Source: an uncultured Planctomycetales bacterium
GTDB taxonomy: Bacteria > Omnitrophota > Gorgyraeia > Zapsychrales > JAHFFX01
NCBI GenBank assembly: GCA_964464475.1
Contig: CAYXGG010000004.1
Coordinates: 4,940-68,939 of the forward strand
DNA: 64,000 nt
Reading direction: 5' to 3'
Under the pieces are notes generated by a model, which saw nothing but the letters and a program-made list of their open reading frames with translations, had not been told where the DNA came from and did no database searches. Both the position numbers and the translations under genes were made by a program. This document shows, one piece after another, positions 1 to 39,677 of this stretch. Every line of letters begins with the position of its first letter. The stretch's first letter is position 1.

Positions 1-3000
1 TTTTCACACTTGAAGCAGCCTTGTTCATCAAAAAATTGCAAATCAGCACACGACTGAATTTTTTCTTCGCAACGGAAACAGGGTACCCCTTGTTTGGTCT
101 TATCCGCGGGGACGCACGCGTGATCCGTTTGTTGCTGACACGCCGCGCACTCGCTCTCCGACAATAGTTTTAATTCAGCACATTGTTGTGGTTTCTCTTG
201 GCAACGGAAACAAGGCAACCCTTCCTTGGTCTTTTGAGCGGCAATACATTCCTGTCGCTGATCTTGCACACACGTGGTACAATCCGCTTCGCCAAGCAAC
301 GCAAGATCGGCGCACGTTTCGGGCTTATCAACACAGCTAAAACACGGTAACCCTTCTTTGGTGGCAGCCGCAGATTTACATTCCTTACGCGGATTTTGCG
401 CGCAGGCCTGACATTGGGCCTCAGTCAGAGAACCTAATTCCTCGCAAGTCTGCGGCCGATCTAAGCAGACATAACATTGCTCTCCCTGATTTGTTTGCTG
501 AGCGGTTTTGCATTCCTTTTTAGGATTGCGCGCGCACGCATTACATTGCATTTTATTTAACAACTCCAAATCGGCGCACGTCTCAGGTTTATCAGCGCAC
601 GTAAAGCAAGCCTCTCCCTGTTTGGTTTTCTGAGCCGGTTGGCAAATTTTCTTAGAGTTCTGCGAACATTCTGCGCACTGCGCTTGACTAATTAAATTCA
701 GATCAAGGCAGGTCTGCGGTCGGTCATCGCAGCGGAAACACTCCAATCCTTCTTTAGTTTTTTGCGCCGAGACGCATTGTTTGCGCGAGTCGGCTTGGCA
801 TTCCAAACATTCTTCATTATTCAGCAAACTCAAATCCTGACAAGTTTGCGGTCGATCAACGCAGCTAAAGCACTGTTCACCGGACTGACTTTTCTGACCG
901 GCCACGCACTGTTTAGTTTTATCTTTAGTACAAATAACGCATTCTTCGGCATTGATCAATTTCAAATCGTGGCATTGCTGCGGCTTTTCTTGGCAACGGA
1001 AACAAGGCAGTCCTTCTTTGGTCTTCTCGGCGGGAACGCATTGTTGACGAGGATCCTGAGCGCAGGTCGCGCAATCAACTTCACTTAACAAACTCAAATC
1101 CGCGCAAGTCTGCGGCTTATCAACACAAGCAAAACACGCTAAGCCTTCTTTCGTTGTCGGCCCCGGCTGACAAATCTTGCCCTTCTCGCTTTGGCACTGA
1201 GCGCAAGCTGCTTCATCAATAGCCCCCACATCCGCGCAGGTTTGCGGTTTAGGAGTACAGGTAAAACACGGTAAGCCTTCTTTAGTAGCTTGTGCAGGAC
1301 GACATTCATTTTTTGCATCTTGCAAACAAGCCGCGCAATCCGCTTCGGTCAACAATTTCAAATCAGCGCATTGTTGTGGTTTATCAACGCACGCCCAGCA
1401 CGCCATCCCTTCCCGCGTCACTTCTCCCGGCTTACATTCTTTACGTGGATCCTTAGCGCAGCGACGGCAATCACTCTCCGACAAATAGCCAATATCTCCG
1501 CAAGTTTGTGGTTTGTCCTGGCAACGGAAGCACTGTTGCCCTTGATTAGTTTTGTTACCTTCTACGCATTCTTTTTTAGGGTTTTTCGCGCAGCCTAAGC
1601 ATTCCTCCGCGGTCATCTGCTCAAAATCAATACAGGCTTGCGGCTTTTCCTGGCAACGGAAACAAGGCAGTCCTTCTTTGGTCTTCTCGGCGGGAACGCA
1701 TTGTTGACGAGGATCCTGAGCGCAGGTCGCGCAATCAACTTCACTTAACAAACTCAAATCCGCGCAAGTCTGCGGCTTATCAACACAAGCAAAACACTGA
1801 ACCCCTTCCTTCGTTTTTTCTCCAGGACGACATTCCTTCTTGGCATCTTCAGCGCATCGATCGCAATTAGGCTGATCAATCAATCCTAAATCCAGACAAG
1901 TCTGCGGGCGGTCAACACAAGAATAGCATTGTTCACCTTCTTTAGTTTTCTTAGCCGCTAAACACTCTTTTAATGGTGACGTGGCTAAACAAGCGCGGCA
2001 ATCGTCCGCGGTCAACAAATTAAAATCTGGACACTTCTGCGGCTTGTCTTGACAGCGATAACAAGGAAGTCCTTCTTTAGTTTTCTGATCGGCAACGCAT
2101 TCTTTAGTTGGATCCTGAGCGCACACAGCGCAATCGGACTCGGCCAACAATTTAATATCCGAGCACATCTGCGGTTTATCAACACAAGCGAAACACAACT
2201 GCCCCTCTTCGGTCTTCCCAGCGGCTTTACATTCCTTTTTAGGATCCTGCAAACATTTCCGGCAATCTTCTTGGCCAATCAAGTTTAACTCTGAGCACTG
2301 CTGAGGCTTTTGTTCACACTTAAAACAATTTTCCCCTTCTTTAGTTTGGGCACCAGGAACGCATTGTTTTTTAGGATCTTTTGCGCAAGCCCCACATTCG
2401 GGCTGGGACAGTAGCTGTAAATCAGCGCAGGTTTGCGGCCGATCTTGACAGACAAAACATTGTTCGCCCTGTTTATTTTTTTCTTTAGCGACGCATTCTT
2501 TTTTAGGATCTTGCGCGCAGGCTGTACAATCTTTTTCGGCCAACAATTTAATGTCCGCGCAAGTTTGCGGTTTTTCAACACAGTTAAAACACGCTTCTCC
2601 CTGTTTCGTCGTCTGTGCGGCCACACACTCTCGACCGGGAGTCTGACGGCAGGAATCGCAATCCGCCTGAGAAAGCAACTTAAGATCCGCACATGTCTCG
2701 GGCTTATCAACACACTGAAAACAAGGCTGGCCTTGTTTAGTCGCTTGTGCCGGCTGACACAATTTTCGTGGATCAGCTAAACACGACGAACAATCTTGCT
2801 CGGTTAATAATTTTAGATCCGCGCACTGCTGAGGCTTTTCAAGGCAAGCAAAACACGGCTGTCCTTCTCGAGTTTTCTGAGCAGGCTGGCAGGCAAACGC
2901 CGGATTAACTGCGCATTGAACGCATTCTGATTCCGCCAACAACTTCAAGTCAGAACAAGTCTGCGGTTTATCCGCACAAATAAAACAGGAAATACCCTCT

Positions 3001-3915
3001 TTGGTTTTCTCACCAGCCTTACACTCCTTATTGGGCTCGCGCGTCATACAGCGACGACAATCACCTTCCGAAAGTTGGCCAAGATCACCACAGGACTGCG
3101 GCTTATCCTGGCATCGATAGCAAGGATTGCCTTGCTTCGTTTTCTCAGCAGGAACACATTCTTTCTTAGGATCTTGGGCGCAAGCGAGGCAATCATCCGC
3201 CGTCATTAATTGCAAGTCCGCGCACTGCTGCGGTTTTTCTTCGCAGGTAAAACAATTTTGTCCCTGTTTGGTTTTGGGTCCCGGGACACATTGCTTGGTC
3301 GGATCCTGGGCACACACAGAGCATCCGGCTTCATCCAAAGCCTTCAAATCAGCACAGGTTTGGGGTTTTTCTTCGCAAACAAAACACGCTTCTCCCTGTT
3401 TGGTTTTCTGTCCAGGAACGCATTGTTTGGTCCCATCCTGAAGACAGGCCGCGCAATCTGCCTCAGTCAATTGCTGCAAATCAACACAAGTTTGAGGCTT
3501 TTCAACGCATTGGAAACAAGGCTGACCTTGCTTAGTCGCTGGAGCGGGACGACACTCTTTACCCGGTTGGGCTGCGCACGGCTTACAATCTGCTTCTGAT
3601 AATAGCTGAAGATCTGCACACGTTTCCGGCTTTTCCTGGCAACGATAGCAGGCCTTACCATCTTTGGTTTTGCTATCGGCCAAACATTCTTTTTTGGGAT
3701 CCTGAGCACAGGTAACACATCCCGCTTCATCCAATAAATTCAGGTCAGAACATTCCTCAGGTTTAGCAACACAGGCAAAGCATTGCTCACCTTTTTGGGT
3801 TTTCTGAGTTGGCGTGCAAACTTGTTTAGAATCGCGCGCGCACGCCGCACAATCAGCTTCGGTCAGTAAACCCAATTCCTTACAATTTAGCGATTTTGGT
3901 GAACACTGGTAGCAC
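1..3915 (-). repeat. Intragenic tandem repeat array, 132-bp period (44 codons), about 30 units, continuing past the window edge
   Basis: Visible periodicity of motifs such as tctgcggcttatcaacacaagcaaaacac and ttggcaacggaaacaaggca. Two units are base-identical (992-1137 and 1652-1797, offset 660 bp = 5 x 132). Confidence 0.85.
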
Positions 3916-4851
3916 GATTGAGGTTCCCGCCCGTCAGTAAAATTAATCGTGTTGGTTGGGAGACATTCTCGAGAAGGATCCTGGCATTGTTCTTGGCATG
4001 ACGCCAACGCCATGGTCCCTGGATAACGCTGCGAACAACCGAAATCACCTTTAGCTTCGCACCGAAAACATTGTTCGCCCCAATTCGTCACTTGAGCGGG
4101 AACGCATTCTTGAGCGCTATCCTGCCAACAAGTATCACATTGATCTAACGACAGCAACCCTAAACTGGGACAGTCTTGAGGTTTTTCAAGGCAGGCATAA
4201 CAAAGCAATTTTGATTGACCATCGCTAGCAGGACCGACGGCGTCAATAACACAAGTCTTTTGGGGATCCTGACAATTTTGTTGGCAAGTTTCTTGAGAAA
4301 ACAGTCCTGGCTGGACTTTGGCGCACTCCTGGTCAATCTTTGACTGGCAGGTATAGCAAGATTCGCCCAGATTAGTCTGGCCGGCAAACTCGCAAATATC
4401 GCCTTTTTGCCCGCAAACATGACACGCTTCAGTATCAATCCAGCCCAAATCCGGACACGTCTGGGGCTTACCTAAGCATTGATAACAAACAACTTCGCGA
4501 TTAACACCCTCTGGTCGGAAAAAATCCGTGGCTTGACATTGGCGGCCTTCTCCGCGGCACTCAATCTCGCAAAGCTCCTTAGGCATGGTTCCGGGAAAAC
4601 GTTTGGAGCATTCAGATTCCACATTTTTCTTACAATCATAGCAAGCACCGTCCTGCCCCATGCCAGCAAAAACGCAATTCAACTGGCATTGAGTTTCACA
4701 TTCAACCACCGTCATGTGGCCTAAATCACGACAAGTAGCAGCCCACAATAAGGTTGGCAAAAACAAAAAAGTAAGGAAAACGGCTACGGCAGGAATGAAC
4801 CGCGAAAGATTTTGCTGCAAATGCCTATAGTTTGATACCTGAGAAAGCATG
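1..4851 (-). CDS. Giant secreted cysteine-rich tandem-repeat protein, partial (C-terminus beyond window start); >=1617 aa; about 30 copies of a 44-aa six-Cys repeat after a signal peptide and a distinct Cys-rich N-terminal region
   Basis: Hand translation of the minus strand from ATG at 4851 gives MLSQVSNYRHLQQNLSRFIPAVAVFLTFLFLPTLLWAATC..., a signal peptide, then an uninterrupted frame to position 1. Every 44 codons the motif ...G.PCFRCQ(D/E)KPQTCADL.LL(S/T)E.DC..CAQDPKKECVPA.KTK(Q/E)G... recurs. The ORF track omits it because no stop lies in the window. The plus-strand ORFs listed at 762-3599 are antisense artefacts of this gene. Confidence 0.8.
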
Positions 4852-4953
4852 TACGGTGATTTCTCCAAAACTGCGATTATTGACCTTTTCTATTCCAAAT
4901 ACTTAAAAGGAAGTCAATACTGCCTTTTCTCTAAAGGAGAAAAGGCGTGTAAC

Positions 4954-5352
4954 TTACGGCTGTATCAGTTTACGACTAAGCAACACATTATCTTCATACA
5001 TTTCTTCAGCCAGCTGCTGCCCCTGGTTGTTATAACGCTTAAACAGGCCATGCATTTTATCTGCCCGATAAGTACCTTCCACTTTTAATTGCCCGTTTTC
5101 ATAAAAAATACGATATAACCCCTCCCGCAAACCCAAACGATAAGCAATTTCGGACTTAAGTTGCCCATTATCGTAATAAAGCTTCAATGTTCCCTGGTGT
5201 TTACGATCCTTAAGCGGTTTTATATTCAAAGTTTCCTGCTTAGGCTTGCTGGCTTGCAGTCCAAATAAATTAAAATTCTTGAAACCGTTGGTAATAAAGA
5301 AGATGGCGATAGTAAGACAAAGTGAAATGACGATGAAATAAATTTTTTTCAT
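4954..5352 (-). CDS. Small secreted/membrane-anchored MORN-variant repeat protein (YwqK-like)
   Basis: N-terminal hydrophobic segment, then repeated YxNGQLK...EG.Y motifs (YYDNGQLKSE, FYENGQLKVEGTY) typical of MORN/YwqK repeats. Confidence 0.5.
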   Translation of the reverse strand: MKKIYFIVISLCLTIAIFFITNGFKNFNLFGLQASKPKQETLNIKPLKDRKHQGTLKLYYDNGQLKSEIAYRLGLREGLYRIFYENGQLKVEGTYRADKMHGLFKRYNNQGQQLAEEMYEDNVLLSRKLIQP

Positions 5353-5554
5353 AGGTCAGCTAAGCACCTCAAGTCACGCGTTCCACAATTTTTGCTGAAG
5401 CCTAACTCCTTTGGCCTGTTTATTTTAATACAATAATTTCAAAAAGCTAACATCTTATTTTCTTTTTCAACAGGAGGGGCCGGCTCTGCGAACGTTGTTC
5501 GCAGAGCCGGCCCCCACTTAAATGTAGCACATCCCGTGATAAAATGGCTAGGGA

Positions 5555-6082
5555 TTATTTTACTCGAGCAAACTTAAAAACGCTGGTCTGACCAAGCTTC
5601 CCGTTTTCATAGTCTGTCCAGGACTGTTCAATATTGTCTTGATCAATAAAGGTCAGCTTCAAATGATGCATATGCTTATCTTGAGCAAGATTAATATCTG
5701 CCGAAGCTCCGGCCTCTAATTCTAGCTCTTTACTATTTGCCGTTTTTAGCTTCAAATGCGGACGATTTCCTAAAGCGCAATAATGTGTCATGGCCAATCG
5801 ACCCCCCTCATCAAAATAAACCGATACCATTTCATGAGGTGTTCCTGGAAAAAGTCGTTCCACCACCGCGCTATTATTTGAAATCACCTGATATTCCACT
5901 CTTAGTTGCTGGGCCTGACCATTCATATCAGCAACCCCTTCCCAAGCACCTGCCAATTGCTTAACACGTTCCAATTCGGCCGAACCCGAATAAGCAGCAG
6001 GAAGCATGCTTTCTTCCGCAGTGACGCGCCCGCCCAAAAACATCACCCCCAACAACCCTAAAAATAATACGCGCTTCTTCAT
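5555..6082 (-). CDS. Hypothetical periplasmic protein (signal peptide)
   Basis: 175-aa ORF with the classic signal peptide MKKRVLFLGLLGVMFLGG...AEE; no recognisable family. Confidence 0.45.
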   Translation of the reverse strand: MKKRVLFLGLLGVMFLGGRVTAEESMLPAAYSGSAELERVKQLAGAWEGVADMNGQAQQLRVEYQVISNNSAVVERLFPGTPHEMVSVYFDEGGRLAMTHYCALGNRPHLKLKTANSKELELEAGASADINLAQDKHMHHLKLTFIDQDNIEQSWTDYENGKLGQTSVFKFARVK

Positions 6083-7473
6083 TTTTCCTCCTTGTGGTTT
6101 TGGTCAACAGGGCAGGTCCCCAGTTGACACAGATAAGCCGCCGCTTCATGATCACTGGGATCAAGTCGCACGACTTTACGAAAATTCTCAGCAGCTTCTG
6201 AATTTCGTCCCAGTCTTAAATTTTCTTGGCCCAATAAAAAATGAACCCTCGCACTTTGTCCGGCAAATCGCGCGGTGTATTCAAATAAACTTAACGCGTT
6301 GTGCCAATAATTATTGTGAACCACCGTCCCATAACTCAAAAAAAGCAAGTACCCGACTAAGCTTAGATTACGAACTTGGCTTTCCCAACGAAAATTCTTT
6401 AAACCCTCGGTGACCAAACAACACGTCGCCAGCCATATACCCCAGGATGGGAAATACAACCAACCTTCCGCCATATACGCATTAATCGGAAAAATCGAAA
6501 CCGGTAGCAACGTCACCATAAACCACCCAATCCCCAAAGCTACCAGCGGCTTTCGCTGTCGCCACCAGAAAAACAATCCGAGCAAACCTAACCACAGCAT
6601 TAGCCCTAACCGAAAAGTTGTATTTCCCGTAGTAAACAGAAAATTCCCATACTCCATGTGCAACTGCTGAGGAAAAAACAACAACTTAAAATATTGAACT
6701 ACCGCGACAAAAAAACCAGGAATCTTTAAATACAATGGAACATCATACCTAAGTGGGAACAGCACATCGTAAACCACCGTCAGTCGCCATCCCAAATAAA
6801 ATACCGTCAAAGCGAGCAAACCAAGAAATAATTTAGGTTGCCAAGTTTTTGGCTGTGTCAGGTGATAGGCTCCCAACAACACAGGAAAAATAATCGCGTG
6901 CTCTTTAGCTAACAAAGCTAGAACATAACAACCCAAACAAACTAATGACCAACAAACCGTTGTCTGCGATTTGGTCTTAATGTACGCAATCCAAGAAACT
7001 AATAAGAAAAAAGCACATAGAATGTCTGCCCGGGCGGAAATATAAGCCACGACGGATGTATGAACGGGATGCGCCGCCCAGATTAAACTGGCACAAAGCG
7101 ATACCCCCTGCTTTCCCGTTAACGCCAGCAACAAAAAATATCCCGCTATGGCAACACACGCATGCCCCGCAACACTCACCCCATGAAAAATAACGGGATT
7201 AAGCCCTCCTAAACAATAATTAATGCAATAAGAAAGATTCTGGAGCGGACGGTAAAAATTAAAACTTTTTTGGCTTCCCGCAGCCAAATCAGTTAATAAA
7301 ATATTTTTCCACTGGCAGACTGGATGAATAAAAGAATTGTTCGTCACGAGGGCTCGATCATCCCAAACAAAATCCCCTCGTAGCGAATTAGCATACAGAA
7401 AAATAACCAGCACCAGGAGCAACAGGACACTGGTCGATCGAGAAAAAATACGTGCTGAGAAATCCATAGGCAA
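6079..7473 (-). CDS. Polytopic membrane protein with C-terminal TPR repeats (TMTC/DUF1736-like, glycosyltransferase-39-like)
   Basis: N-terminal YANSLRGDFVWDD motif typical of TMTC/DUF1736 proteins, many TM segments, and a C-terminal TPR-like segment (AAENFRKVVRLDPSDHEAAAYL). Confidence 0.5.
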   Translation of the reverse strand: MPMDFSARIFSRSTSVLLLLVLVIFLYANSLRGDFVWDDRALVTNNSFIHPVCQWKNILLTDLAAGSQKSFNFYRPLQNLSYCINYCLGGLNPVIFHGVSVAGHACVAIAGYFLLLALTGKQGVSLCASLIWAAHPVHTSVVAYISARADILCAFFLLVSWIAYIKTKSQTTVCWSLVCLGCYVLALLAKEHAIIFPVLLGAYHLTQPKTWQPKLFLGLLALTVFYLGWRLTVVYDVLFPLRYDVPLYLKIPGFFVAVVQYFKLLFFPQQLHMEYGNFLFTTGNTTFRLGLMLWLGLLGLFFWWRQRKPLVALGIGWFMVTLLPVSIFPINAYMAEGWLYFPSWGIWLATCCLVTEGLKNFRWESQVRNLSLVGYLLFLSYGTVVHNNYWHNALSLFEYTARFAGQSARVHFLLGQENLRLGRNSEAAENFRKVVRLDPSDHEAAAYLCQLGTCPVDQNHKEEK

Positions 7474-7630: not shown

Positions 7631-7813
7631 CTACCCCTTAACTCTTCTTTTCTCCAGGGTGTAATAAAGAAAAAACCCTATCACTGGTAAAAAAATTATC
7701 AAGGCAATCCAGAACGCTTTTTTTTTCGGCTCGATTGTCGTCATTAGGCAATCGAAAATCGCCCACGCATATAACGTAACGACAATTAATCCAAAAAATC
7801 GTTCCATAACCAA
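7631..7813 (-). CDS. Small membrane protein, PLD-nuclease N-terminal (PLDc_N) domain family
   Basis: 60 aa with two TM helices and the WAIFDCL...P.IG..LYY pattern characteristic of PLDc_N small proteins. Confidence 0.5.
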   Translation of the reverse strand: MVMERFFGLIVVTLYAWAIFDCLMTTIEPKKKAFWIALIIFLPVIGFFLYYTLEKRRVKG

Positions 7814-12427: not shown

Positions 12428-12892
12428 ATGCTAAAAAAAATATCTCGCAAGTTAAAATATTCAAGCGGCTTTACTCTGCCAGAACTCATGATTTCCTGCC
12501 TTATTATTATGCCGATACTCGTGGGAGGCATTTTTACGTTCATTCAATGCTTAGAGCTGTCCGAATTATCAGGAAACATGTCTACAGCTATTCTGGGAAC
12601 CCAAACGCTCATTTCACAAATCGAGGACTCGGCGTTTAATCAAATCTTTAGCAATTATAACAACACGACCTTCTCACTTTCCGGACTAACGGGAGCAGGT
12701 GTCACCTATGTTGATAACTCCGATCCAGATTTACTAAAAATCACCAACACTTTCTGTTGGCGACAAAAAAGCGGCAGAGTCATCGGAGAAGATAAAAATT
12801 TAAATGGCCAACTAAACGCCGGTGAAGATAGCAACGGCAACGGGATTCTGGATTCTCCCGTACAACTAGCTACTCTTATTTACAATGAATAA
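12428..12892 (+). CDS. Type IV pilus minor pilin / pseudopilin (prepilin-type N-terminal cleavage/methylation domain)
   Basis: N-terminus ...SGFTLPELMISCLIIMPIL matches the prepilin peptidase motif G|FTLxE plus a hydrophobic helix; GAAGGAA ribosome-binding site upstream. Confidence 0.7.
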   Translation: MLKKISRKLKYSSGFTLPELMISCLIIMPILVGGIFTFIQCLELSELSGNMSTAILGTQTLISQIEDSAFNQIFSNYNNTTFSLSGLTGAGVTYVDNSDPDLLKITNTFCWRQKSGRVIGEDKNLNGQLNAGEDSNGNGILDSPVQLATLIYNE

Positions 12893-13673
12893 CCAACGGT
12901 CCCCCTCAGCCGGATTTACCCTCACTGAACTCATGGTGGTGACGATCCTTTCCGCCATTGTGGGGATGGCTAGTTTGATGATGATTGTCTCCGGCCAGAA
13001 ATTACTGACTCACACTGAGCATCAAATCCGCTTACAGGAGAACGCGCGACTCTTTATGCATCGGCTGGCCCGCGAACTGCAGGAATCTGGTCGTGATCAA
13101 AATGGTAATTTAAAAGTAACGATTCAAGACAATACGGGAACCAATGGTTCAGATATTCTACGTTTCTCCGTTCCCATCTGCCCTTGCGGTAGGAATGTCA
13201 TGGATGACAACGGTAATGTGCGTTCATGGGGCGCACCCATCATCTGGGGACAAACAGGGTGCAACAACGATCCTCCCGTCGAGACGAACGGCAAAGTGAT
13301 TATTTGTCATTTACCTCCGGGAAATCCCGGCAACCAACAAACGTTACAAGTTTCCCCCTCTTCGGTGAAAGCGCATTTAGCCCATGGGGACTGGATAGGA
13401 AACTGCAATACCTGTAATCCGACCACCTACACGAATCACTATGTGGAGTATTCCCTTGATGCCAACAACAAGGTTATTCGTAAAATTTTAGATTCAACAC
13501 TAACCACAATCTCGCAAACAACGTTTGCCTTATTGGTGACAGATTTTCAAGTTTCTTTAAACGTCGCCCAAACCGTGGTCACCGTCAACACGACATTTAC
13601 GCAAGCGTCGCAGCAAACGCAAACACAAACGCTGATGCAGACCATCAAAGTAATTTTGAAGAATCGAGGATAG
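12885..13673 (+). CDS. Type IV pilus minor pilin (PilW-like; prepilin-type N-terminal domain)
   Basis: N-terminus SAGFTLTELMVVTILSAIVG; its start overlaps the upstream gene's stop (operon). Confidence 0.65.
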   Translation: MNNQRSPSAGFTLTELMVVTILSAIVGMASLMMIVSGQKLLTHTEHQIRLQENARLFMHRLARELQESGRDQNGNLKVTIQDNTGTNGSDILRFSVPICPCGRNVMDDNGNVRSWGAPIIWGQTGCNNDPPVETNGKVIICHLPPGNPGNQQTLQVSPSSVKAHLAHGDWIGNCNTCNPTTYTNHYVEYSLDANNKVIRKILDSTLTTISQTTFALLVTDFQVSLNVAQTVVTVNTTFTQASQQTQTQTLMQTIKVILKNRG

Positions 13674-13676
13674 CTT

Positions 13677-15371
13677 ATGAAACTACACGCTCAGCAAGGA
13701 TCTATGTATATTTATACCTTAGGGGTTTTCTTTACCATCGCTTCGATTAGCGGAATTTTTCTATTGCGATCCGTTAATGCCAGCAAAAGTACGCAAATCG
13801 CTACCTCTTCTCTAAAAGCTTATATCGTTGGACAAGGCGCCGCGCAGGCCGCCCTCCGACAGGTTGACACTTTAATTAATAGCTATTTATTGACCACTCT
13901 CTCAAACACCAGTCCTAGCGGTGTTATTAATTACGCGACCAGCAAAGTAGCGTCAGGAGATGGTATCGGCTGGCTGGTTTATTCAACTCGCAATAATAAC
14001 GTCGCCGTACTGACTCAAAATGGCGAACAAGCTGAATACAGCGGCAGCGGGACGCTCGCGACCGGAACGTATCAATTCAATATTATTATTACTGAGAAAT
14101 CAGACCCCACCTCGGCCGGCGCCGACGCCTGGGATTTTCCATTTAGCTACAAAGTGTTGGCTCGGGGAATCTCTGCAGGCCAGAGCAATGATATCGCCAC
14201 CAGCGGAGATTTTACCGTGCGCGTCCAGCGGGACAATTTTGCCAAATTCGCGCTTTTCACTAATGACCAAACAACTCCCTCGGGGACTAACGTCTGGTTT
14301 ACGGATAAAACTAATTTTTCCGGCCCTGTGCATACCAACACCCGCTTTAATTTCGCCTTAAATCCCAGCGGAACTTTTACGGACGCCGTAACACAGCATT
14401 ATCAAACCGCACGATTTTATAATAGTGGCTCTTCCCTGCTTTTAGATGCCAGTAGCAACGGCACGAAAGACGTTCCTGTGTTTCAAGATAGCTTTACTCG
14501 GGACGAAGATTTCGTGACCCTTTCTTCAGCCACCCAACAAACCGACATGGTCACTCAGGCCAAAGGAAGCAACACTTATTCAACTAATGGTATTTATATC
14601 CCCAACAGTGGTGGAAATCTAACCGCCGGAATTTATGTTCGGGGCGATAGTAATATCAGCATGTCGATCAACGGTAGTCAACAAGCCGTCTATACCATTA
14701 CCCAAGGAGCGACAACCAAAACTGTCACCGTTGATCGTACAAACAATCAAACAATCGTCCAGGATTCTAGCGGGACCACCACTTATGCTGGCCTTCCCGA
14801 TGGGCAGGATGACGCCGGGACCCTTATTTATGTTGAAGGAGATGTTGATAGTCTGCAAGGAACCGTTCAAGAAGATACTGAACTGACCATCGGCAGCAGT
14901 GCAGATATTGTTATTACCAATCACGTCCAGTACGAAAGTTATACGCCGGGCAGCGGCACACCTGGGACGGTCGGTTACGTTCCGCCTTCCGTGGACAGCG
15001 CTGATAACTTGCTCGGATTGGTTTCCTGGGGCGGCAATGTACGTGTAGGAACCGGCGCTCCGAATGACATCAACATTCACGGCACCGTTATGTCACAAAA
15101 CGGCGTCATGACGGTTGATGATTATAACAACACTTCCGTCGGTCCACGAGGAACGGCGACGCTGTTAGGTGGGGTCATCTCTGATGACTACGGAGCTTTT
15201 GGATTATTTAATAGTTCGACGGGACTCGCTACCGCTGGCTATGGCCGCAATTTTGTCTATGACCAACGCATGCTGGCGGGAAAAGCGCCGCCCTACTTTC
15301 CTTCGTTGGATACGTTTATCGCTTTCACTAATGATATTACGGACAAGTTAGTCTGGCAGGAAGGACAATAA
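13677..15371 (+). CDS. Large PilX-like pilus assembly / putative tip-associated protein
   Basis: 564 aa. N-terminal hydrophobic helix in PilX-N style (MKLHAQQGSMYIYTLGVFFTIASISGIFLL), then a long T/S/G/N-rich beta-type region. Confidence 0.45.
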   Translation: MKLHAQQGSMYIYTLGVFFTIASISGIFLLRSVNASKSTQIATSSLKAYIVGQGAAQAALRQVDTLINSYLLTTLSNTSPSGVINYATSKVASGDGIGWLVYSTRNNNVAVLTQNGEQAEYSGSGTLATGTYQFNIIITEKSDPTSAGADAWDFPFSYKVLARGISAGQSNDIATSGDFTVRVQRDNFAKFALFTNDQTTPSGTNVWFTDKTNFSGPVHTNTRFNFALNPSGTFTDAVTQHYQTARFYNSGSSLLLDASSNGTKDVPVFQDSFTRDEDFVTLSSATQQTDMVTQAKGSNTYSTNGIYIPNSGGNLTAGIYVRGDSNISMSINGSQQAVYTITQGATTKTVTVDRTNNQTIVQDSSGTTTYAGLPDGQDDAGTLIYVEGDVDSLQGTVQEDTELTIGSSADIVITNHVQYESYTPGSGTPGTVGYVPPSVDSADNLLGLVSWGGNVRVGTGAPNDINIHGTVMSQNGVMTVDDYNNTSVGPRGTATLLGGVISDDYGAFGLFNSSTGLATAGYGRNFVYDQRMLAGKAPPYFPSLDTFIAFTNDITDKLVWQEGQ

Positions 15372-15373
15372 TC

Positions 15374-15691
15374 ATGCGCGCGCGATCGTTAATCAAAATA
15401 ATTTTGCTTACCGCCTTATTAGTCGGCTTGGCGGCGGTAATTTATAAAATCAACGCTCATGTTAACAAAGAAATTGAAGAAATGACCGATCTCTCGCGCG
15501 CTTCCGTAGATGTTTCAGCAGCAGTTCCCTTAGATCCTCGATTTGTCGCTCAAGGCAAACTTCCGCAAATAGATCCCGCCAACGATCCCCTGGCTCCGGT
15601 TGAGAAAGTCAAACTTCCGCCCCCACAAAAGATTCGTCCCCTCACCGGAGCCTCCGATTCCATCACAGACCCTTATACGTTAGTACAATAA
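15374..15691 (+). CDS. Small membrane-anchored Pro-rich protein (pilus operon, unknown function)
   Basis: 105 aa with an N-terminal TM helix and a proline-rich tail; its start overlaps the preceding gene's stop (13677-15371). Confidence 0.35.
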   Translation: MRARSLIKIILLTALLVGLAAVIYKINAHVNKEIEEMTDLSRASVDVSAAVPLDPRFVAQGKLPQIDPANDPLAPVEKVKLPPPQKIRPLTGASDSITDPYTLVQ

Positions 15692-22390: not shown

Positions 22391-23449
22391 TTAACATATT
22401 CTTGGTAATTGTTCCCCGCTTAGCATGTCCAGTATCCGCACGACACCCATCCGACTAACCATCGTGACCCGCGGATTCCCCTTTTCGGTAACTTCCCCGA
22501 TAAGGGTCGCGTTTTCTCCTAATGGATCCGCCCGTAAAATACCTAAGACCCGGTCAACATCCTTACGGTCAACCAACAAAACAAAACGCCCTTCGTTGGC
22601 AACGGAAAGTGGATCCAATCCCAGAATTTCACAAGCCCCCCGCACATCGTCTCGGACCGGGACCGCTTTTTCTTCAATGTTAAACACATGTCCACTGGCC
22701 ATGGCCAATTCGTTAAGAGCGCTCACCAACCCACCTCGGGTCAAATCGCGCAGGCAATGAATCTTGACCTTGGCCGCAAGTAACTTCGCGACCAACCCAT
22801 TCAAGGGGGCGGAATCACTTTCGATCGCCGATTCAAACTGCAATCCCTCACGCGCCGAGAGGATCGCCATACCGTGGCGACCCAAATCACCGCTGACAAT
22901 AATTTGATCACCCACAGCGATACGCGTTGGCGCTATTGTCATCTCCTGTTCAATTACCCCAATCCCCGCCGTAGTAATGAAAATCTCATCTCCCTTGCCC
23001 CTATCGACTACCTTCGTATCGCCGGTGACAATCCGGACCCCCGCGCTGTCCGCCGCCCGGCGCATGGATTGCAACACGCGCCATAATCTTTCCATCGATA
23101 GCCCCTCTTCCAAAATAAACGCGACCGATATATACAAAGGACGGGCCCCCACCATGGCCAAATCATTGACAGTACCGTGGATGGATAGCGACCCGATATC
23201 ACCCCCGGCGAAGAAAATCGGGCGGACAACAAACGAATCCGTAGTCATGGCCACTCGCGCGTTGGGGTTAGCTAAGACCGCCGCGTCATGTGCGGATTCT
23301 AACGACGGATTCGTAAACGCGGGAACAATCAATTTATCCAACAATTCTTTGGATAATTTTCCTCCTCCGCCATGCGCCAACAATAAATGACGATGATTAG
23401 TTAAAGGCATCGGGCAAGAAACCTGTAGAAGTGATTGATCATTGATCAT
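22391..23449 (-). CDS. hypE: Hydrogenase maturation protein HypE
   Basis: AIR-synthase-like fold with the conserved C-terminal PRIC. Confidence 0.9.
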
Positions 23450-24561
23450 GACGACACCTGTTTATTTGTCGGCAAGGGCAGATCACGATAGCGATAATAC
23501 GCCGAGCAGGCCCCCTCAGAGGAGACCATCGTCGCGCCCAACGGATGTTCCGGTGTGCATTTTGTACCAAAAGCCGGACATTCGGTCGGTTTAATCGTTC
23601 CTTGCAGTACCAACCCACTTAAGCAATCTCTCGGTTCCGCGATTTGACGCGCACTTAAACCGAAACGTTTTTCCGCATCGAAGGACGCGTAGTCATCGCG
23701 CAATCCTAAGCCACTGTCGTTAATTGCCCCAATGCCCCGCCACTGCCGGGTGACAATTTGAAAAACCGTCTTGATCAATTGTTGAGCTGGGAGATTCCCT
23801 TCGGTCCGTACCGAACGCGCATACTGGTTCTCGACCTCCCATCGTCCTTCTTCCAACTGTTTAACGCAAAGATACACCCCATGCAAAATATCTAACGGTT
23901 CAAACCCCGTGACCACGATGGGCACGCGATACCGTGCGGCGATCGGCCCATATTCATGGCATCCCATGACCGTGCACACATGCCCCGCCGCCAGAAAACC
24001 CTGCACACGATTTTCTTTAGACGACAAAATAGCTTCCATGGCCGGAGGGACCAATACGTGAGAAATTAAAACGGAAAAGTTCTCAACGCCCTTTTCCTTG
24101 GCCTGGTAAACCGCCATAGCGTTGGCTGGGGCCGTCGTTTCAAAACCGACCGCCAAGAAGACCACTTGTTTTTGTGGGAACTTTTGCGCCAGCGTGACGG
24201 CGTCTAACGGCGAATAAACCACCCGCACATCACCGCCCCGCGCTTTGACCGATTGCAAATCCGTCGATGATCCGGGGACCCGAAGCATATCTCCAAAGGT
24301 GCAAAAAATCACCTCTGGCCGCGAAGCAATTTCTACGGCCTTGTCAATAATGTCCAGCGGCGTCACGCAAACCGGGCATCCCGGGCCATGGATCAGTTTG
24401 ATCTGCTCCGGCAGCAATCGATCTAATCCGAATTTAATGATCGCGTGGGTCTGCCCTCCGCAAATTTCCATTAATGACCAAGGGTGGGTCACGACCCGCT
24501 TGATTTCTCTGACAAACCGATGGACTTCATCCGCATTGCGGTACTCATCTAAATATTTCAT
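23446..24561 (-). CDS. hypD: Hydrogenase maturation protein HypD
   Basis: [14 protein letters not shown] and FE..P.. motifs of HypD. Confidence 0.9.
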
Positions 24562-24571
24562 GATTAAGTCG

Positions 24572-24814
24572 TCACTTTATCTCTTCCAATTCATCCATTG
24601 CTTTTAAATAATCAAAGACTTTCTGGGCCTCCACCGGATCGACGGTGCTGATCGCAAACCCGACATGCACAATCACGTAATCACCGACTTTGGCTTCAGG
24701 CACGTAAGCTAACGATACTTCTTTGCTGATCCCCCCAAAGCTGACTTTTCCCGCTCGGGTCAATTCTCCCTCCTGCGTGATTTCCGTGATGAGACCCGGA
24801 ACCGCCAAACACAT
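24572..24814 (-). CDS. hypC: Hydrogenase maturation chaperone HypC
   Basis: Internal start MCLAVPG (the conserved HypC N-terminus); about 80 aa. The track ORF has a spurious N-terminal extension overlapping hypF. Confidence 0.85.
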
Positions 24815-24815
24815 A

Positions 24816-27128
24816 TTACCCTCTCTTTCCTTGATGCGCCGCCACCCATAATTGGCCCACCGCCAAAGCGCCGTCATTCACCGGTAACTTTTCCGGCAAA
24901 AAAACGCTAAAACCTTCTTTTTGTAAACGGGATTTCGCCTTCCCACTCAAATACGCATTCTGAAAACAGCCTCCGGAGAGAACAATATCCTCCATCCGGA
25001 TCTCCCTCGCCACCGAGACCAAAATCTCGACTAACGTGTCATGAAATTTCCGGCTAATTTGGGCTGAGTCCGTTTTTAAATTCAAATCAATCAAAATGCC
25101 TTGCAGCATGGCACCCCAATCAATCCGCCATTGTTGATCTTTATCAATTAATAAATCAAATGAATAAACTCCCTGGTCCTCGGTCCCGCGCAACACCTGT
25201 TCCAAACGTTCCGCGCCCTGCCCTTCGAAAGAAGCACGGGAAACCAATCCCAACAAAAACGCCACCGCATCATATAAGCGACCGACGCTAGTCGTCAATG
25301 GTGAATTAAAAGAACGTTCCAGCATTTGCTTGATCGCATTAATTTCCACTGCACTGAAAGCGGCTTTAATACTTTCCGGAAATGTCGACCCCAATTTAGA
25401 TTTGTTCCATTCAACAATGAGCCCTAGCGCGCTGCGCCGGGGTTCACGGACCGCGACTTCCCCACCCGGCAAAGGAAAAGGACGAAAGCTCGCCACTCGT
25501 TGATATTTCGCCCCATCCACCGTCAAGAATTCTCCCCCCCAGACGGTTCCGTCCGGCCCCCACCCCGTCCCATCCCAAGCCACGCCTAAAACAGGTCCCG
25601 TCAATTGCTTTTCAGCCATGACCGCCGCAACGTGCGCGTGATGGTGCTGCACGCGGTAAATAAGTTTCCCTAATGGCTGAGCTAAACGAGACGACACATA
25701 ATCAGGGTGTTCGTCAATAACGACGTCTTTGACTTCAGCGTCGTGAAGTTGGCGCAAACTGCTTTGGCAATCCTGGAATGATTTGACAGCCAATTCATTT
25801 TCCAAATCACCGATATGCTGACTGAGAACGATTCTATTCTCAAGCCCCAGCGCAACGGTATTCTTTAACTGCCCGCCTAAGGCCATCCGGCCCGATACAT
25901 TCACCGTAACCTCCAATGATACCGGGGCATAACCCCTGGCCAGACGAATCGGCAAAGTCTGCTTATCCAAACAGCGCACGATCGAATCATCCAAGGCTCT
26001 GACAATAGGACGGTCATGGACCAAGAAAATATCGGCAATTTGGGCTAACCGGTTTAACGCGTCAATGTCCTCAATGCATATCGGTTCTTCGCTAACGTTA
26101 CCACTGGTCATGACCAACGGTCGATCTACAATTTGCATCAATAAATGATGCAACGGCGTGGTCGGCAGCATCACCCCTATATTCTGATACCCCGGAGCAA
26201 TACCCGACGCTAACGTCACCCCTGCCGTTTCTGCCTGGCAGGCCACAATCACAATCGGCGCCGCCGCGCTGGTCAGCACCTCTGTTTCGAAAGCCGACAA
26301 CTTCGCGTAACGCTGAACTTCAACAACATTTTTCATCATCAACGCGAATGGTTTATCCGGGCGCTGTTTACGTTCCCTAAGTCGACGAACCGCATCCTCA
26401 TTCGTCGCGTCCACCGACAGTTGAAAACCTCCCAGGCCCTTAACAGCGACGATCTTACCTTGAATCATTGCTTCCGCCGCCTGTTTTAAAGCATCCCCTT
26501 GGTGTGCCAAAACCTTCCGCGATGAATCCCAAAGCGCCAACTGCGGACCACAATCCGGACAGGCGTTGGCTTGCGCATGAAAACGTCGGTTTAAAGGATC
26601 GTGATACTCTTCAAGGCAACGCGGGCACATACTAAACTGACGCATCGTCGTGTTGATCCGATCATAAGGCACGGATTCAATGATTGAAAATCTCGGACCG
26701 CAATGCGTGCAATTGGTGAAAGGATAATGATACCGTCGATTGGCAGGATCAAAAATGTCCTTAAAGCATTCCTCACAGGTCGCTAAGTCCGGAAGGACCG
26801 GCGCGGATTTTACCCCTTCATGAATACTGGCTCGGATAACAAAACGTTCCTCCGGGTGGCAACATTGTTTTGTCTTTTCCCAATCTGTTATCTTTGAAGG
26901 AAAAGGAAGCTCCGTTAATAGCCGATGTTGAAATAGCCTTAGCTGTGATCGCTCTCCCTGAACTTCTAACTCAACCCCGGCAGAGGTGTTACTTACCTGA
27001 CCGGTCAAGCCGAATTCATTGGCCAACCTTAACACAAAAGGTCGAAAACCAACTCCTTGGACATATCCGGTTAGCACATAATGCCAGCGTTCTCGCCGAG
27101 AATTGAGAAGACCTACAGGTAGTGACAT
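24816..27128 (-). CDS. hypF: Carbamoyltransferase HypF
   Basis: Acylphosphatase domain (VQGVGFRPFV), two CxxC...CxxC zinc-finger pairs, then YrdC- and Kae1-like domains; 770 aa. Confidence 0.9.
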   Translation of the reverse strand: MSLPVGLLNSRRERWHYVLTGYVQGVGFRPFVLRLANEFGLTGQVSNTSAGVELEVQGERSQLRLFQHRLLTELPFPSKITDWEKTKQCCHPEERFVIRASIHEGVKSAPVLPDLATCEECFKDIFDPANRRYHYPFTNCTHCGPRFSIIESVPYDRINTTMRQFSMCPRCLEEYHDPLNRRFHAQANACPDCGPQLALWDSSRKVLAHQGDALKQAAEAMIQGKIVAVKGLGGFQLSVDATNEDAVRRLRERKQRPDKPFALMMKNVVEVQRYAKLSAFETEVLTSAAAPIVIVACQAETAGVTLASGIAPGYQNIGVMLPTTPLHHLLMQIVDRPLVMTSGNVSEEPICIEDIDALNRLAQIADIFLVHDRPIVRALDDSIVRCLDKQTLPIRLARGYAPVSLEVTVNVSGRMALGGQLKNTVALGLENRIVLSQHIGDLENELAVKSFQDCQSSLRQLHDAEVKDVVIDEHPDYVSSRLAQPLGKLIYRVQHHHAHVAAVMAEKQLTGPVLGVAWDGTGWGPDGTVWGGEFLTVDGAKYQRVASFRPFPLPGGEVAVREPRRSALGLIVEWNKSKLGSTFPESIKAAFSAVEINAIKQMLERSFNSPLTTSVGRLYDAVAFLLGLVSRASFEGQGAERLEQVLRGTEDQGVYSFDLLIDKDQQWRIDWGAMLQGILIDLNLKTDSAQISRKFHDTLVEILVSVAREIRMEDIVLSGGCFQNAYLSGKAKSRLQKEGFSVFLPEKLPVNDGALAVGQLWVAAHQGKRG

Positions 27129-27147
27129 TGCTCATGCTTTCGCTGAG

Positions 27148-27483
27148 TTAACTTTCTATTTGCGTCGTAATGGTATTACCTTGTACCACTTCCACATTGC
27201 GGGACAGACAAGACGAACACATCAACAAATGGTGGTCTTCCACCGGTCCGCGTTGGCCGCAAGCGCGGCACAGGACTTCCACCGGGACCTCTTCAAAATC
27301 AATGGGTATCCGCTCCAGCGCGGTCGATTGCGTACGCATTTGGTAATGAAACAGGACCGAATCTTTATGCAAATGAAACATCTCTCCCACACGGACACGG
27401 ATATTTTTTGGTTCTCCCTCTTGTTTCTTCAAGTCCGCTAAGATGACTTCGATAATCTTTTCTGTAAATCCCGCTTCATGCAT
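27148..27483 (-). CDS. hypA: Hydrogenase nickel-incorporation protein HypA
   Basis: MHE N-terminus and a C-terminal CxxC...CxxC zinc site (CRACG...CSSC). Confidence 0.85.
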   Translation of the reverse strand: MHEAGFTEKIIEVILADLKKQEGEPKNIRVRVGEMFHLHKDSVLFHYQMRTQSTALERIPIDFEEVPVEVLCRACGQRGPVEDHHLLMCSSCLSRNVEVVQGNTITTQIES

Positions 27484-30596: not shown

Positions 30597-30605
30597 AGTT
30601 CCTCC

Positions 30606-32255: not shown

Positions 32256-32773
32256 GACGGCACCCCGACCTTTGCATTTAACACATCTACGGCTTCCTGA
32301 GCCTTTAATCTTCCCACGACTTTCTCATCGACCACAATCACCGGAGCCAACCCGCAAGCCCCCAGACAGCGCGCGGTCTGCAGTCCCAAGCGATTATCTT
32401 TGGTCACTTCTCCGGGCTTCAGGTGATAATCTTCAGCGATTTTATCCAAAATCATGTTGGCCCCTTTCACGTAGCACGCCGTACCCGTGCACACCAAACA
32501 CGTGTGCTCACCTTTAGGCTTTAAGGAGAAAAAATGATAAAACGTGATGACGCCAAAAACCCGGCTGGGAGGCAGAGACAATTGTTGCGCGATAAACTGG
32601 ATAACGTTAAGCGGCAGATATCCATACGCGCTTTGCGCGGTATGTAGGATTTGGATCAGCGATTCCGGACGGCCCTGCTCTTTTTTGATTGCGGCCAAGA
32701 TAAGTTTGGAACGAGGGTCTTCTTTCGGCAACGTCCTAACAGTCCGTTGCCGAACCATTTGATATTGGGGCAT
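32252..32773 (-). CDS. hoxE: Hydrogenase diaphorase subunit HoxE (NuoE-like 2Fe-2S)
   Basis: NuoE-type CxxxxC...CxxxC 2Fe-2S ligands; translationally coupled to hoxF. Confidence 0.85.
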
Positions 32774-39666: not shown

Positions 39667-39677
39667 AATTCAAATTG

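Follow-up and report, generated by a model that had tools for sequence, protein, structure and literature searches.

A tandem array of six-cysteine helix-hairpin modules in a giant exported protein of Omnitrophota, a putative surface stalk

Organization of the locus

The window, i.e. the whole analysed stretch of 64,000 nucleotides, opens with a minus-strand gene coding for a giant protein rich in cysteines. A single uninterrupted frame of 1629 codons is open from position 4889 down to 3 and reaches the window edge. The gene starts at the ATG at 4850, comprises 1616 codons inside the window, and has its 3' end past the edge. The first-pass annotation was right in reporting a long minus-strand ORF extending to the edge, but the ATG at 4851 and the length of at least 1617 codons that it proposed had to be corrected, as the frame of that ATG is rich in stops. 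The start at 4850 is backed by an orthologue from an Omnitrophota MAG (P0005), with which alignment begins at residue 15 in both proteins. Features of the locus are as follows.

3..4850, minus strand: coding sequence of the giant cysteine-module protein, in the single frame 4889..3; matched over 4850..1777 by an independent assembly (L001) with 99.9% identity
4740..4850, minus strand: putative signal peptide, aa 1-37, SPase-I type by inspection
4626..4739, minus strand: variant first six-cysteine module, aa 38-75
3897..4625, minus strand: three alternating pairs of type A and type B modules, aa 76-318, collinear module by module with P0005
63..3896, minus strand: contiguous type B array, 29 units of 44 aa (two of 45), aa 319-1596, 132-nt period
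3..62, minus strand: 30th unit, partial at the edge; residues 1597-1615 hold its first three cysteines only
979..1137, minus strand: copy 1 of a near-exact internal duplication (partner 1639-1797; 1 mismatch in 159 nt)
1639..1797, minus strand: copy 2 of the duplication; L001 ends at 1777, inside this copy
4954..5352, minus strand: conserved partner gene upstream of the giant gene; its 132-aa product has a membrane helix at the N-terminus followed by repeats of MORN-variant type (PF07661 MORN_2, E=2.8e-13)
5472..5518, minus strand: strong stem-loop, terminator-like without a U-tract (dG -42.5 kcal/mol, z = -8.1, 0/200 shuffles as stable)

By inspection, the N-terminus of the giant protein (MLSQVSNYRHLQQNLSRFIPAVAVFLTFLFLPTLLWA, followed by ATC after the putative cleavage point) carries basic residues, a hydrophobic core of ~20 residues and a small residue at -1, which bears out the signal peptide noted previously. 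The layout is the same in P0005 (VFA followed by DTC). The first cysteine of the window protein (aa 40) corresponds to the module cysteine C5 and is not a lipobox cysteine. Across the family, export signals are of Sec or lipoprotein type, and no conserved twin-arginine motif was found in the signals of the window protein and its relatives. The windowed part of the protein contains 213 cysteines (13.2%), while histidine is nearly absent (4 among 1579 residues of the mature window protein), and the array is acidic (pI 4.9).

In the Omnitrophota MAG GCA_020429925.1, a homologue of the MORN-variant membrane protein (36% identity, E=3e-24) precedes the orthologous giant gene by 24 nt, marking this protein as a conserved partner of the giant gene. 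The stem-loop, missed by a consensus terminator scan, separates the pair from an upstream gene for a 175-aa protein. Genes for multihaem cytochromes and cytochrome biogenesis are located around 38-46 kb, separated from the giant gene by over 33 kb and many unrelated genes. The link to metal-respiration genes that had been suggested at first is thus not upheld, and the conserved partner is the MORN-variant protein. PFOR, [NiFe] hydrogenase and multihaem cytochromes mark the lineage as anaerobic, and no thiol oxidase of Dsb/VKOR type was found within the window.

Architecture of the module array

Amino acid autocorrelation of the giant protein is 0.47 at lag 44, 0.42 at lag 88 and 0.39 at lag 132, and the series of cysteine gaps 6,10,2,7,11,2 recurs nearly without exception. 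The window holds 35 complete six-cysteine modules, accounting for 210 cysteines (35x6); this count is a lower bound for the whole protein, whose C-terminus lies past the window. The modules are represented by the 29 contiguous type B units, two more B-type modules N-terminal to them, three type A modules, and one variant first module with the spacing C-x10-C-x3-C-x3-C-x10-C-x2-C. Type A modules are 52 aa long, bear a C..[RK][FY]PGTM-like motif and follow C-x12-C-x3-C-x6-C-x16-C-x2-C, while type B modules in the A/B pairs have 43-44 aa.

Type B units share the consensus KPQTCADLKLLSEADCAACAQDPKKECVPAQKTKEGEPCFRCVD, in which C5, C16, C19, C27, G36, C39 and C42 are invariant. Each module has two CxxC motifs 19 residues apart. 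The spacing C-x2-C-x6-C-x10-C-x2-C-x7-C, as described in the first-pass annotation, holds in 27 of the 29 units, with x8 in the other two; the 132-bp periodicity is likewise confirmed by the lag-44 autocorrelation, and the ~30 tandem modules counted previously agree with the 29 contiguous units and the partial 30th, now extended to 35 complete modules. Junctions between units are highly conserved and contain proline (D/E-K-P-Q-T, or more generally [DE]-[KR]-P-Q).

Integrity of the array

Units are 50% identical in amino acids and 57% in DNA, with codon-position identities of 0.62/0.70/0.385, a pattern indicating that they are old and under purifying selection. The junction pattern has 20 matches in the window, with 0 expected. 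L001, an independent ENA assembly, is collinear with window positions 5468-1777 at 99.9% identity and without gaps; its overlap with the gene, 3.07 kb long, verifies codons 1 to 1024, and the one difference within the gene is synonymous.

We consider it exceedingly improbable that the array stems from misassembly or repeat collapse, or that it is the remnant of a pseudogene lying where a contig ends. Short-read assemblies do stop inside such arrays (L001 at the duplicated unit, as well as L006 and many other loci), protein collections hold the neighbours of the giant protein and lack the protein itself, and one near-exact duplication of 159 nt is present. Against this, the 1629 codons are open and uninterrupted, the codon-position pattern is that of purifying selection, the independent assembly agrees across 3.07 kb with one synonymous change, and complete intact homologues are known in five distinct sequences. 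Since the units differ at 43% of nucleotides, they assemble uniquely. An interrupted ORF or an assembly artefact, either of which the first-pass annotation had named as fatal to its claim, is therefore contradicted by the open frame and by L001. The duplication of ~159 nt is recent, and the copy number between the duplicates is the least certain part of the array because of the near-exact repeat and the break of L001 at that place.

Relatives of the giant protein

The window protein was linked by phmmer to the protein P0001 (E=1.6e-5), and a search with the module profile revealed 41 proteins among 1.84 billion representatives, with E-values of family members from 1e-106 to 1e-10. All six cysteine columns align between window modules and relatives. 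In addition, a DNA scan with the junction pattern found 34 metagenome loci, many with matches spaced at multiples of 132 nt. Altogether 269 segmented modules have six cysteines, and all six are found in 223/299 profile-aligned instances, most of the others being truncated local alignments. The only real exception is an orthologous module in five divergent proteins, from which precisely C16 and C27 are both missing. The spacing of the first cysteine pair varies over the family (CxxC, CxxxC, CxxxxC). The family can be described as tandem C-x(8-12)-C-x(2-4)-C-x(2-8)-C-x(6-19)-C-[FYWH]-x-C following an export signal, and 35 of the 35 complete window modules conform to this description. All labelled members (3/3) belong to Omnitrophota, so that, judged by the labelled sequences, the module is restricted to this phylum. 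The nine HemA hits that carry an organism label are likewise all from Omnitrophota.

The closest relative, P0005, is the orthologue of the N-terminal part of the window protein (38% identity, E=2e-77), with the same order of modules; P0004, from the same MAG, is a C-terminal fragment. A/B alternation at the N-terminus is common only to the window protein, P0005, P0004 and P0038. Lipoprotein signals are found at most family N-termini. Five distinct complete relatives (six loci, two of which, L095 and L111, are the same) consist of a lipobox, a P/A-rich linker, 17 modules and a C-terminal cap, and have 102 cysteines (17x6) in the mature form. This cap, a conserved module containing a hydrophobic strand, with the motif G[LV]ILF[YF]...C[YV]xC, characterizes the non-protease subfamily and closes every related ORF in which the C-terminus is covered (17/17). 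It is also present in P0004, and by comparison with the relatives, partly via that fragment, the window protein would be expected to carry one as well. Other relatives are giants with an S8 protease at the C-terminus of the same chain, such as MBP9854308.1, annotated solely as 'S8 family serine peptidase'. None of these relatives is characterised.

Both the S8-peptidase giants and the ~820-aa metagenome lipoproteins share with the window protein the same exported, tandem six-cysteine module with C-[FYWH]-x-C at its end. The window protein differs in having no lipobox, no protease in the part seen, the distinctive N-terminal A/B alternation, and at least 35 modules, at least twice the 17 found in the lipoprotein relatives. 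Its gene is accompanied by the MORN-variant partner, whereas a response regulator is the neighbour in relatives.

Comparison with known domains

A full-length hmmscan of the giant protein against Pfam (E<=10) gave just two spurious matches, PCNA_N and DUF7936, and the NCBIfam search gave none. These are the searches suggested initially, and they agree with the view that the repeat corresponds to no known domain. In particular, no match at E<=10 was obtained for the Pfam models of EGF, TNFR_c6, furin-like, GCC2_GCC3 or Giardia VSP, no NCBIfam or Pfam match for the Myxococcus cysteine-rich repeat (TIGR02232, with its CDDGN-type motif) or DUF4215, and no Pfam domain of GT, GH, peptidase C39, dockerin, TSP3 or SecA-like type in the 1616 residues available. 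One protein of the Myxococcus type (P0037) matches the module profile weakly and partially (E=1.2e-4, positions 2-33), with a different motif. Rubredoxin and zinc ribbons gave no Pfam or NCBIfam match at E<=10, nor was fold similarity to their solved members found, and hhalign of the module profile with Clostridium pasteurianum rubredoxin returned a probability of 0.3%.

In profile searches of PDB sequences the best match was repeatedly the MDM2/Arkadia RING, at non-significant E = 0.03-0.3. The alignment sets four module cysteines on C438/C441/C461/C464 of MDM2, which make up one zinc site. Neither the eight cross-braced ligands of a RING finger (C3HC4 or variants) nor a significant profile match was found. 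The recurrent sub-threshold likeness to the first zinc site of this RING nevertheless keeps a Zn(Cys)4 reading alive. In CS-alpha/beta defensins, six cysteines are set 1 + 2 + 1 + 2 over the N-loop, helix, strand 1 and strand 2. The module resembles these defensins and scorpion toxins in its size of ~40 aa, extracellular nature, N-loop, single helix, single beta-hairpin and cysteine order 1 + 2 + 1 + 2; a helix CxxxC bonded to a CxC in the last strand, or profile or fold similarity, was not detected. Tandem ~40-aa six-cysteine modules build stiff extracellular stalks presenting a distal element in EGF, TNFR CRD, furin-like/GCC2_GCC3 and Giardia VSP proteins. Unlike these eukaryotic rods, the module has an alpha-helix, another cysteine spacing and a bacterial host. 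The module is a new domain family that has no relative, by sequence or by fold, in Pfam, NCBIfam or PDB.

Predicted fold and state of the cysteines

AlphaFold2 modelled three units (aa 760-891) with a pLDDT of 94.1 and without a dip at the junctions, and one unit with 92.1. According to DSSP, the modelled module has an N-loop, a helix (13-20) with C16 and C19, and a hairpin (25-32/38-44) with C27 and C39/C42. It is a confidently modelled and previously undescribed helix-hairpin domain of ~44 residues and six cysteines. The first CxxC is predicted mid-helix and the second mid-strand, not in knuckle turns.

Three disulfides per module are favoured over metal because of the correlated loss of C16 and C27, the variable spacing of the first motif, cysteines in multiples of six, the near absence of histidine, and Sec or lipoprotein export. 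The pairing is likely C16-C27, C19 with C39 or C42, and C5 with the remaining strand cysteine, as suggested by the one ancient correlated loss together with secondary-structure reasoning. What counts against disulfides is the anaerobic lineage and the lack of a Dsb/VKOR-type oxidase in the window, on account of which the thiols might stay reduced.

An unlikely alternative is that C16xxC19 and C39xxC42 form a Cys4 site, with structural zinc or redox Fe/Ni, next to a C5-C27 disulfide, so that at least 35 metal centres would serve as a store, sensor or electron conduit. It can draw on the paired CxxC motifs 19 residues apart in every module, the non-significant RING match (E 0.03-0.3) with four cysteines on one MDM2 zinc site, and an anaerobic host in which exported thiols can stay reduced, with no thiol oxidase in the window. 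As in the Cys4 sites of rubredoxin, zinc ribbons and RING, two CxxC motifs ~19 residues apart flank a beta-hairpin; in the module, however, they lie inside a regular helix and strand, the first spacing is variable, export is by Sec, and histidine is almost absent. The models, the hhalign value of 0.3%, the missing Pfam and NCBIfam matches, the family-wide variation of the first motif and the lack of a genomic link to cytochrome genes all argue against metal, and the joint loss of C16 and C27 would leave neither the proposed metal site nor the proposed C5-C27 disulfide intact. The rubredoxin or zinc-ribbon interpretation offered earlier is disfavoured on these grounds. Sec and lipoprotein signals without a conserved twin-arginine motif also make cytoplasm-assembled Fe/Ni centres unlikely; such export is compatible with zinc acquired afterwards. 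There is only a slim chance that each module binds Fe/Ni (in a rubredoxin-like site) or zinc through four cysteines, giving a chain of at least 35 closely spaced thiolate-metal centres tens of nm long, a non-haem 'wire' or metal reservoir outside the cytoplasm of an anaerobe with multihaem cytochromes. A wire or reservoir of this kind is not known to have been described, and if the modules do bind metal, the significance would be much higher.

Proposed role as a stalk

We propose, with a probability of roughly 0.55, that the gene codes for a very long extracytoplasmic structural protein of Omnitrophota, a disulfide-stapled stalk holding a functional tip off the envelope. The idea of a giant exported protein of six-cysteine modules, already put forward on first reading, is supported, and among the roles then considered, the structural fibre is the one favoured by the evidence. 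Sequence features show that the chain left after Sec export is made up of 35 or more independent mini-domains, 38-52 residues in size, each predicted with high confidence to have an N-terminal loop, a short alpha-helix and a beta-hairpin and probably held by three disulfides among its six invariant cysteines. Short Pro-containing junctions (D/E-K-P-Q-T) would join the modules, so that the array may form a hydrophilic and acidic stalk resistant to proteases, with a length of very roughly 90 nm for modules placed end to end. Relatives have their array lipid-anchored at the N-terminus with the hydrophobic-strand cap at the end, or bearing the S8 protease, and the array could accordingly act as a spacer between a functional tip and the cell envelope. 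The window protein is without a lipobox, and the MORN-variant membrane protein may hold its stalk at the membrane. By analogy, the most likely function in this tiny-celled and probably host-dependent phylum is adhesion to, or contact with, surfaces or other cells.

A very unlikely alternative is a polyprotein cut at the junctions into disulfide-rich, defensin-like peptides of ~44 residues, which would serve a predatory or epibiotic cell as toxins or antimicrobials. Module size, cysteine order and secondary structure do recall insect-type CS-alpha/beta defensins, the junctions are highly conserved, and a sister architecture has an S8 subtilase in the same chain. But the junction [DE]-[KR]-P-Q puts proline after the basic residue and contains no dibasic site, the units are not uniform, having drifted apart to 50% identity, and relatives with an N-terminal lipid anchor and one unique C-terminal cap fit an intact stalk better than a series of identical peptides.

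Regarding location, position +2 after the lipid cysteine is occupied by Asp in several relatives, which in E. coli signals inner-membrane retention. This would speak against surface placement, and both cell-surface and periplasmic positions are compatible with the observations.

Tandem disulfide-rich extracellular rods are commonplace in eukaryotes and rare in bacteria, and are especially unexpected in an anaerobic, uncultured and ultra-small lineage. If the modules are disulfide-bonded, an anaerobe of this kind would have to oxidise over 100 disulfides in each chain it exports, and one may ask whether it does so and by what means. Omnitrophota are described as having tiny cells, giant surface proteins and host dependence (bioRxiv 10.1101/2023.11.21.568195; 10.64898/2026.06.07.730766), and neither of the two papers mentions cysteine or disulfide modules. 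Their giant proteins (Archaeovorins, dockerin/TSP3 type) and the window protein are alike in phylum, great length, export, repetitiveness and a presumed surface role in host contact (10.1101/2023.11.21.568195; 10.64898/2026.06.07.730766), but differ in size (30-147 kaa versus at least 1.6 kaa seen so far), and none of their domains was found in the part seen. The same module is a building block of lipid-anchored stalks, protease-bearing giants and the window protein with its at least 35 copies. Omnitrophota are believed to attach to other microbes or to prey on them, and a candidate for the contact apparatus is a long stalk whose tip is conserved.

Organization of the giant gene and its modules

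A giant secreted protein built of tandem six-cysteine modules had been described in the first-pass annotation, and the observation holds with minor corrections of frame and start. The frame of the ATG placed at 4851 is full of stops, while the ATG at 4850 lies in a minus-strand frame that stays open for 1629 codons (4889 to 3) and continues past the edge of the window, so that 1616 codons of the protein are covered. Cysteines number 213 (13.2%), and their gap series of 6,10,2,7,11,2 is nearly invariant along the protein. Tandem Repeats Finder reported only 2.1 copies in the gene because the units are too diverged; the periodicity was therefore taken from autocorrelation at the protein level, which reaches 0.47 at 44 residues. 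The following segments were distinguished:

aa 1-37, minus strand: signal peptide, upstream of the array
N-terminal region after the signal peptide, minus strand: a variant module, then three pairs of type A and type B modules
aa 319-1596 (nt 3896-63), minus strand: contiguous array of 29 complete 44-aa units, then a partial 30th

Type A modules, longer (52 aa) and following the pattern C-x12-C-x3-C-x6-C-x16-C-x2-C, alternate with type B, the regular module of about 44 aa. Altogether, 35 complete six-Cys modules hold 210 cysteines. The consensus of the units is KPQTCADLKLLSEADCAACAQDPKKECVPAQKTKEGEPCFRCVD, with C5, C16, C19, C27, G36, C39, and C42 invariant.

Mean identity between units is 50% in amino acids and 57% in nucleotides, distributed over the three codon positions as 0.62/0.70/0.385 with a random expectation of 0.26, and both Cys codons are in use (TGC 87, TGT 75). 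Such values, judged from these sequence comparisons, point to ancient duplications whose protein product is under purifying selection, and not to a collapsed repeat. Over window positions 5468-1777, an independent ENA assembly (L001) is 99.9% identical and gapless, with one difference, a synonymous one, inside the giant gene. It stops at a near-exact duplication of 159 nt (979-1137 and 1639-1797), which is the weak spot of the assembly support. The giant protein was absent from both protein collections searched, and a contig end probably truncates it; the other proteins of the window are present on a 131.7-kb NCBI contig, and the neighbouring 175-aa gene is indexed on a 2.5-kb ENA contig only. 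A search with the full protein through GTDB species genomes gave 37 pattern matches and no relatives, and the C-terminus was not recovered through GTDB genomes, neighbour genes, or metagenome loci.

Domain identity and predicted fold

Neither Pfam nor NCBIfam gave a relevant match to the giant protein, even at E ≤ 10, in agreement with the earlier failure to recognise the module as a named domain. Sequence searches of the PDB produced sub-threshold matches to the MDM2 and Arkadia RINGs (E 0.03-0.3) and a spurious one to PCNA. Aligned with the module profile by hhalign, rubredoxin and defensin A both remained below 1% probability. The module is an unknown domain, a new family carrying out a known design principle.

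Three consecutive units were modelled with AlphaFold2 using a pseudo-MSA of 27 sliding blocks from the window and 5 blocks from P0001, a related metagenome protein. Mean pLDDT was 94.1 and did not fall at the junctions; a single unit reached 92.1. Each module is predicted to fold into an N-loop, a helix (13-20) containing C16xxC19, and a hairpin (25-32/38-44) bearing C27, C39, and C42.

Relatives of the module

By phmmer, the giant protein was linked to P0001 alone (2762 aa, E=1.6e-5), in which about 40 similar modules precede a subtilase at the C-terminus. A profile built from the modules of the window and P0001 was used in an exhaustive search of 1.84 billion representatives, and only 41 proteins were found. 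By sequence, they sort into three groups:

Group (i): giants in which a signal peptide and a module array are followed by a conserved ITYVIIIIETP segment, a Lys-rich linker, and an S8 peptidase
Group (ii): proteins of regular 44-aa units with a cap module at the end
Group (iii): short lipoproteins with 2-4 modules and a cap

In Pfam, the peptidase alone is detected in group (i). A short hydrophobic segment, [IV]TY[VI]IIIIETPxGRxVL, is highly conserved in all S8-type giants (P0001, P0003, P0008-10, P0015, P0023, P0026, P0032, and P0035) and directly follows the last Cys module; between it and the subtilase lie a linker containing a poly-Lys stretch and an NDP[LF][YF] motif. A role of this conserved region in autoprocessing or anchoring is possible.

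The metagenome search for the repeat, proposed in the first-pass annotation, did reveal relatives. When the junction between modules was written as a degenerate DNA pattern, it matched 20 times in the window (0 expected) and at 34 metagenome loci, many with matches at 132-nt spacing; none of the 34 was from the same species as the window. Complete genes at six of these loci represent five distinct proteins. In each, a lipobox and a Pro/Ala-rich linker of ~45 aa precede 17 six-Cys modules, and the C-terminus is a cap containing a hydrophobic strand; 102 cysteines (17x6) were counted in the mature form of four of the five. The cap terminates all 17 related ORFs that reach a C-terminus.

N-termini of the relatives are mostly lipoprotein signals. 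Several of those examined (L098, L105, L107, L108, and L110) include Asp as the residue at +2, next to the lipidated Cys (GIGC|D, VIGC|D, PSGC|D), and other lipoprotein relatives have Gly or Glu there. In E. coli lipoproteins, Asp at +2 is an inner-membrane retention signal. Because these residues differ, stalks of different lipoprotein relatives may not all be in the same membrane.

Disulfides or a metal site

We consider it likely, with a probability of roughly two in three, that each module forms three disulfides, as suggested by the cysteine patterns and the predicted fold. Nearly every module has six cysteines: they are present in 269 segmented modules and in 223 of the 299 profile-aligned instances, the remainder being mostly truncated local alignments. 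The only true exception occurs in five divergent S8-type proteins, whose second module is without exactly C16 and C27, as fits the loss of one disulfide.

A metal site in the module, put forward earlier as rubredoxin-like or zinc-ribbon-like, appears improbable. Coordination of Zn by C16, C19, C39, and C42, accompanied by a C5-C27 disulfide, does not fit the joint loss of C16 and C27. In the family, spacing of the first Cys pair varies among CxxC, CxxxC, and CxxxxC, and the AlphaFold2 model puts the CxxC motifs in mid-helix and mid-strand, which, together with the hhalign result, speaks against a rubredoxin-like site. Cysteine counts come in multiples of six, and there is almost no His. Export signals are of the Sec or lipoprotein type; a Tat-exported cofactor protein was considered but rejected, as the twin-arginine motif is not conserved. 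Counting against the disulfide model are the anaerobic lifestyle, the failure to identify a thiol oxidase in the window, and the RING resemblance, persistent though non-significant.

Genomic neighbourhood

Features in the vicinity of the giant gene are as follows:

4954-5352, minus strand: 132-aa MORN-variant membrane protein
5472-5518, minus strand: stem-loop with a perfect GC-rich stem of ~19 bp (dG -42.5 kcal/mol, z = -8), without a U-tract
5555-6082, minus strand: 175-aa secreted protein without a family match
6079-7473, minus strand: 464-aa multi-pass membrane protein with a C-terminal TPR, overlapping the 175-aa gene by 4 nt
~7640-7810, minus strand: small unlisted ORF of ~57 aa with two hydrophobic helices (MERFFGLIVVTLYAWAIFDCLMTT...EKRRVKG)
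12428-15691, plus strand: pilin-like gene cluster with an N-terminal methylation motif (PF07963), DUF4900, and two small ORFs

The stem-loop, located between the 3' end of the 175-aa gene and the 5' end of the MORN gene, parts the MORN and giant pair from the upstream genes. It was not detected in a consensus terminator scan, and a sigma-70 scan of 4700-5700 gave no promoter. By inspection, the 464-aa protein resembles the layout of GT-C/PMT-like glycosyltransferase-TPR proteins; it and the 175-aa protein could possibly be linked to modification of envelope proteins. The ~57-aa ORF sits within a 344-nt "intergenic" stretch and is followed by a canonical hairpin and T-tract terminator (GGCCCTCTGTTCGCC...GGCGAACAGAGGGCCTTTTTG). 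About 8 kb from the giant gene and on the opposite strand, the pilin-like cluster is possibly a type IV pilus or T2SS pseudopilin set.

The Omnitrophota MAG GCA_020429925.1 encodes an orthologous N-terminus, P0005, which matches the giant protein collinearly, one module after another (38% identity, E=2e-77); a homologue of the MORN-variant protein lies upstream of it (36% identity, E=3e-24). The same MAG contains a C-terminal fragment (P0004) with A/B alternation and a cap, which suggests a similar ending for the unseen part of the giant protein. Lipoprotein-type loci have in common an upstream response-regulator gene in place of the MORN gene. Around the ~820-aa lipoproteins, synteny is conserved (L096 7768-12602; L113 1812-6734; equivalents in L112 and L120): the adjoining upstream gene encodes a response-regulator receiver protein (~280 aa), and downstream are a Gly-rich secreted protein of ~150-170 aa and a 289-aa protein without an NCBIfam match. 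The genomic context of P0001 and P0017, another related protein, gave no functional clue.

Proposed role

Sequence features, family architectures, and the predicted fold being established, we infer the disulfide pairing, rod geometry, surface location, and function. The giant protein (pI 4.9) is most likely an intact, disulfide-stapled, acidic stalk, making the "structural fibre" option of the first-pass annotation plausible. If modules were arranged end to end, the stalk would be ~90 nm long. It would project the distal cap away from the envelope, possibly with the MORN-variant membrane protein as its tether, and would serve contact or adhesion.

Organism and energy metabolism

All nine organism-labelled HemA relatives belong to Candidatus Omnitrophica/Omnitrophota (best non-self identity ~55%), as do the three labelled members of the module family (3/3). 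PFOR was uninformative as a taxonomic marker, with matches scattered over many phyla and a best identity of 63%. Tiny cells and giant surface proteins are known from Omnitrophota (bioRxiv 10.1101/2023.11.21.568195; 10.64898/2026.06.07.730766); neither work mentions cysteine modules, and a literature search for cysteine-rich proteins of Omnitrophota/Omnitrophica found nothing relevant.

The suggested link of the giant protein to metal respiration is not borne out: cytochrome and cytochrome-biogenesis genes are located at 38-46 kb, with unrelated genes between. An unrelated Cys-motif protein was also observed, together with the energy-metabolism block:

50525-51154, minus strand: 209-aa protein with a CxxCxxCC putative Zn/Fe-chelating domain (PF03692)
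22391-32773 and 33803-46367, minus strand: energy-metabolism block

The block includes HypF/C/D/E, a [NiFe] hydrogenase with NuoF/NuoG/NuoE-like diaphorase subunits, PFOR, a NapC/NirT-type cytochrome, paired-CXXCH multihaem cytochromes, and genes for cytochrome c biogenesis by system II (ResB/CcsA). It has no tie to the giant protein, but shows that the organism lives as a respiratory anaerobe, a notable trait among Omnitrophota.
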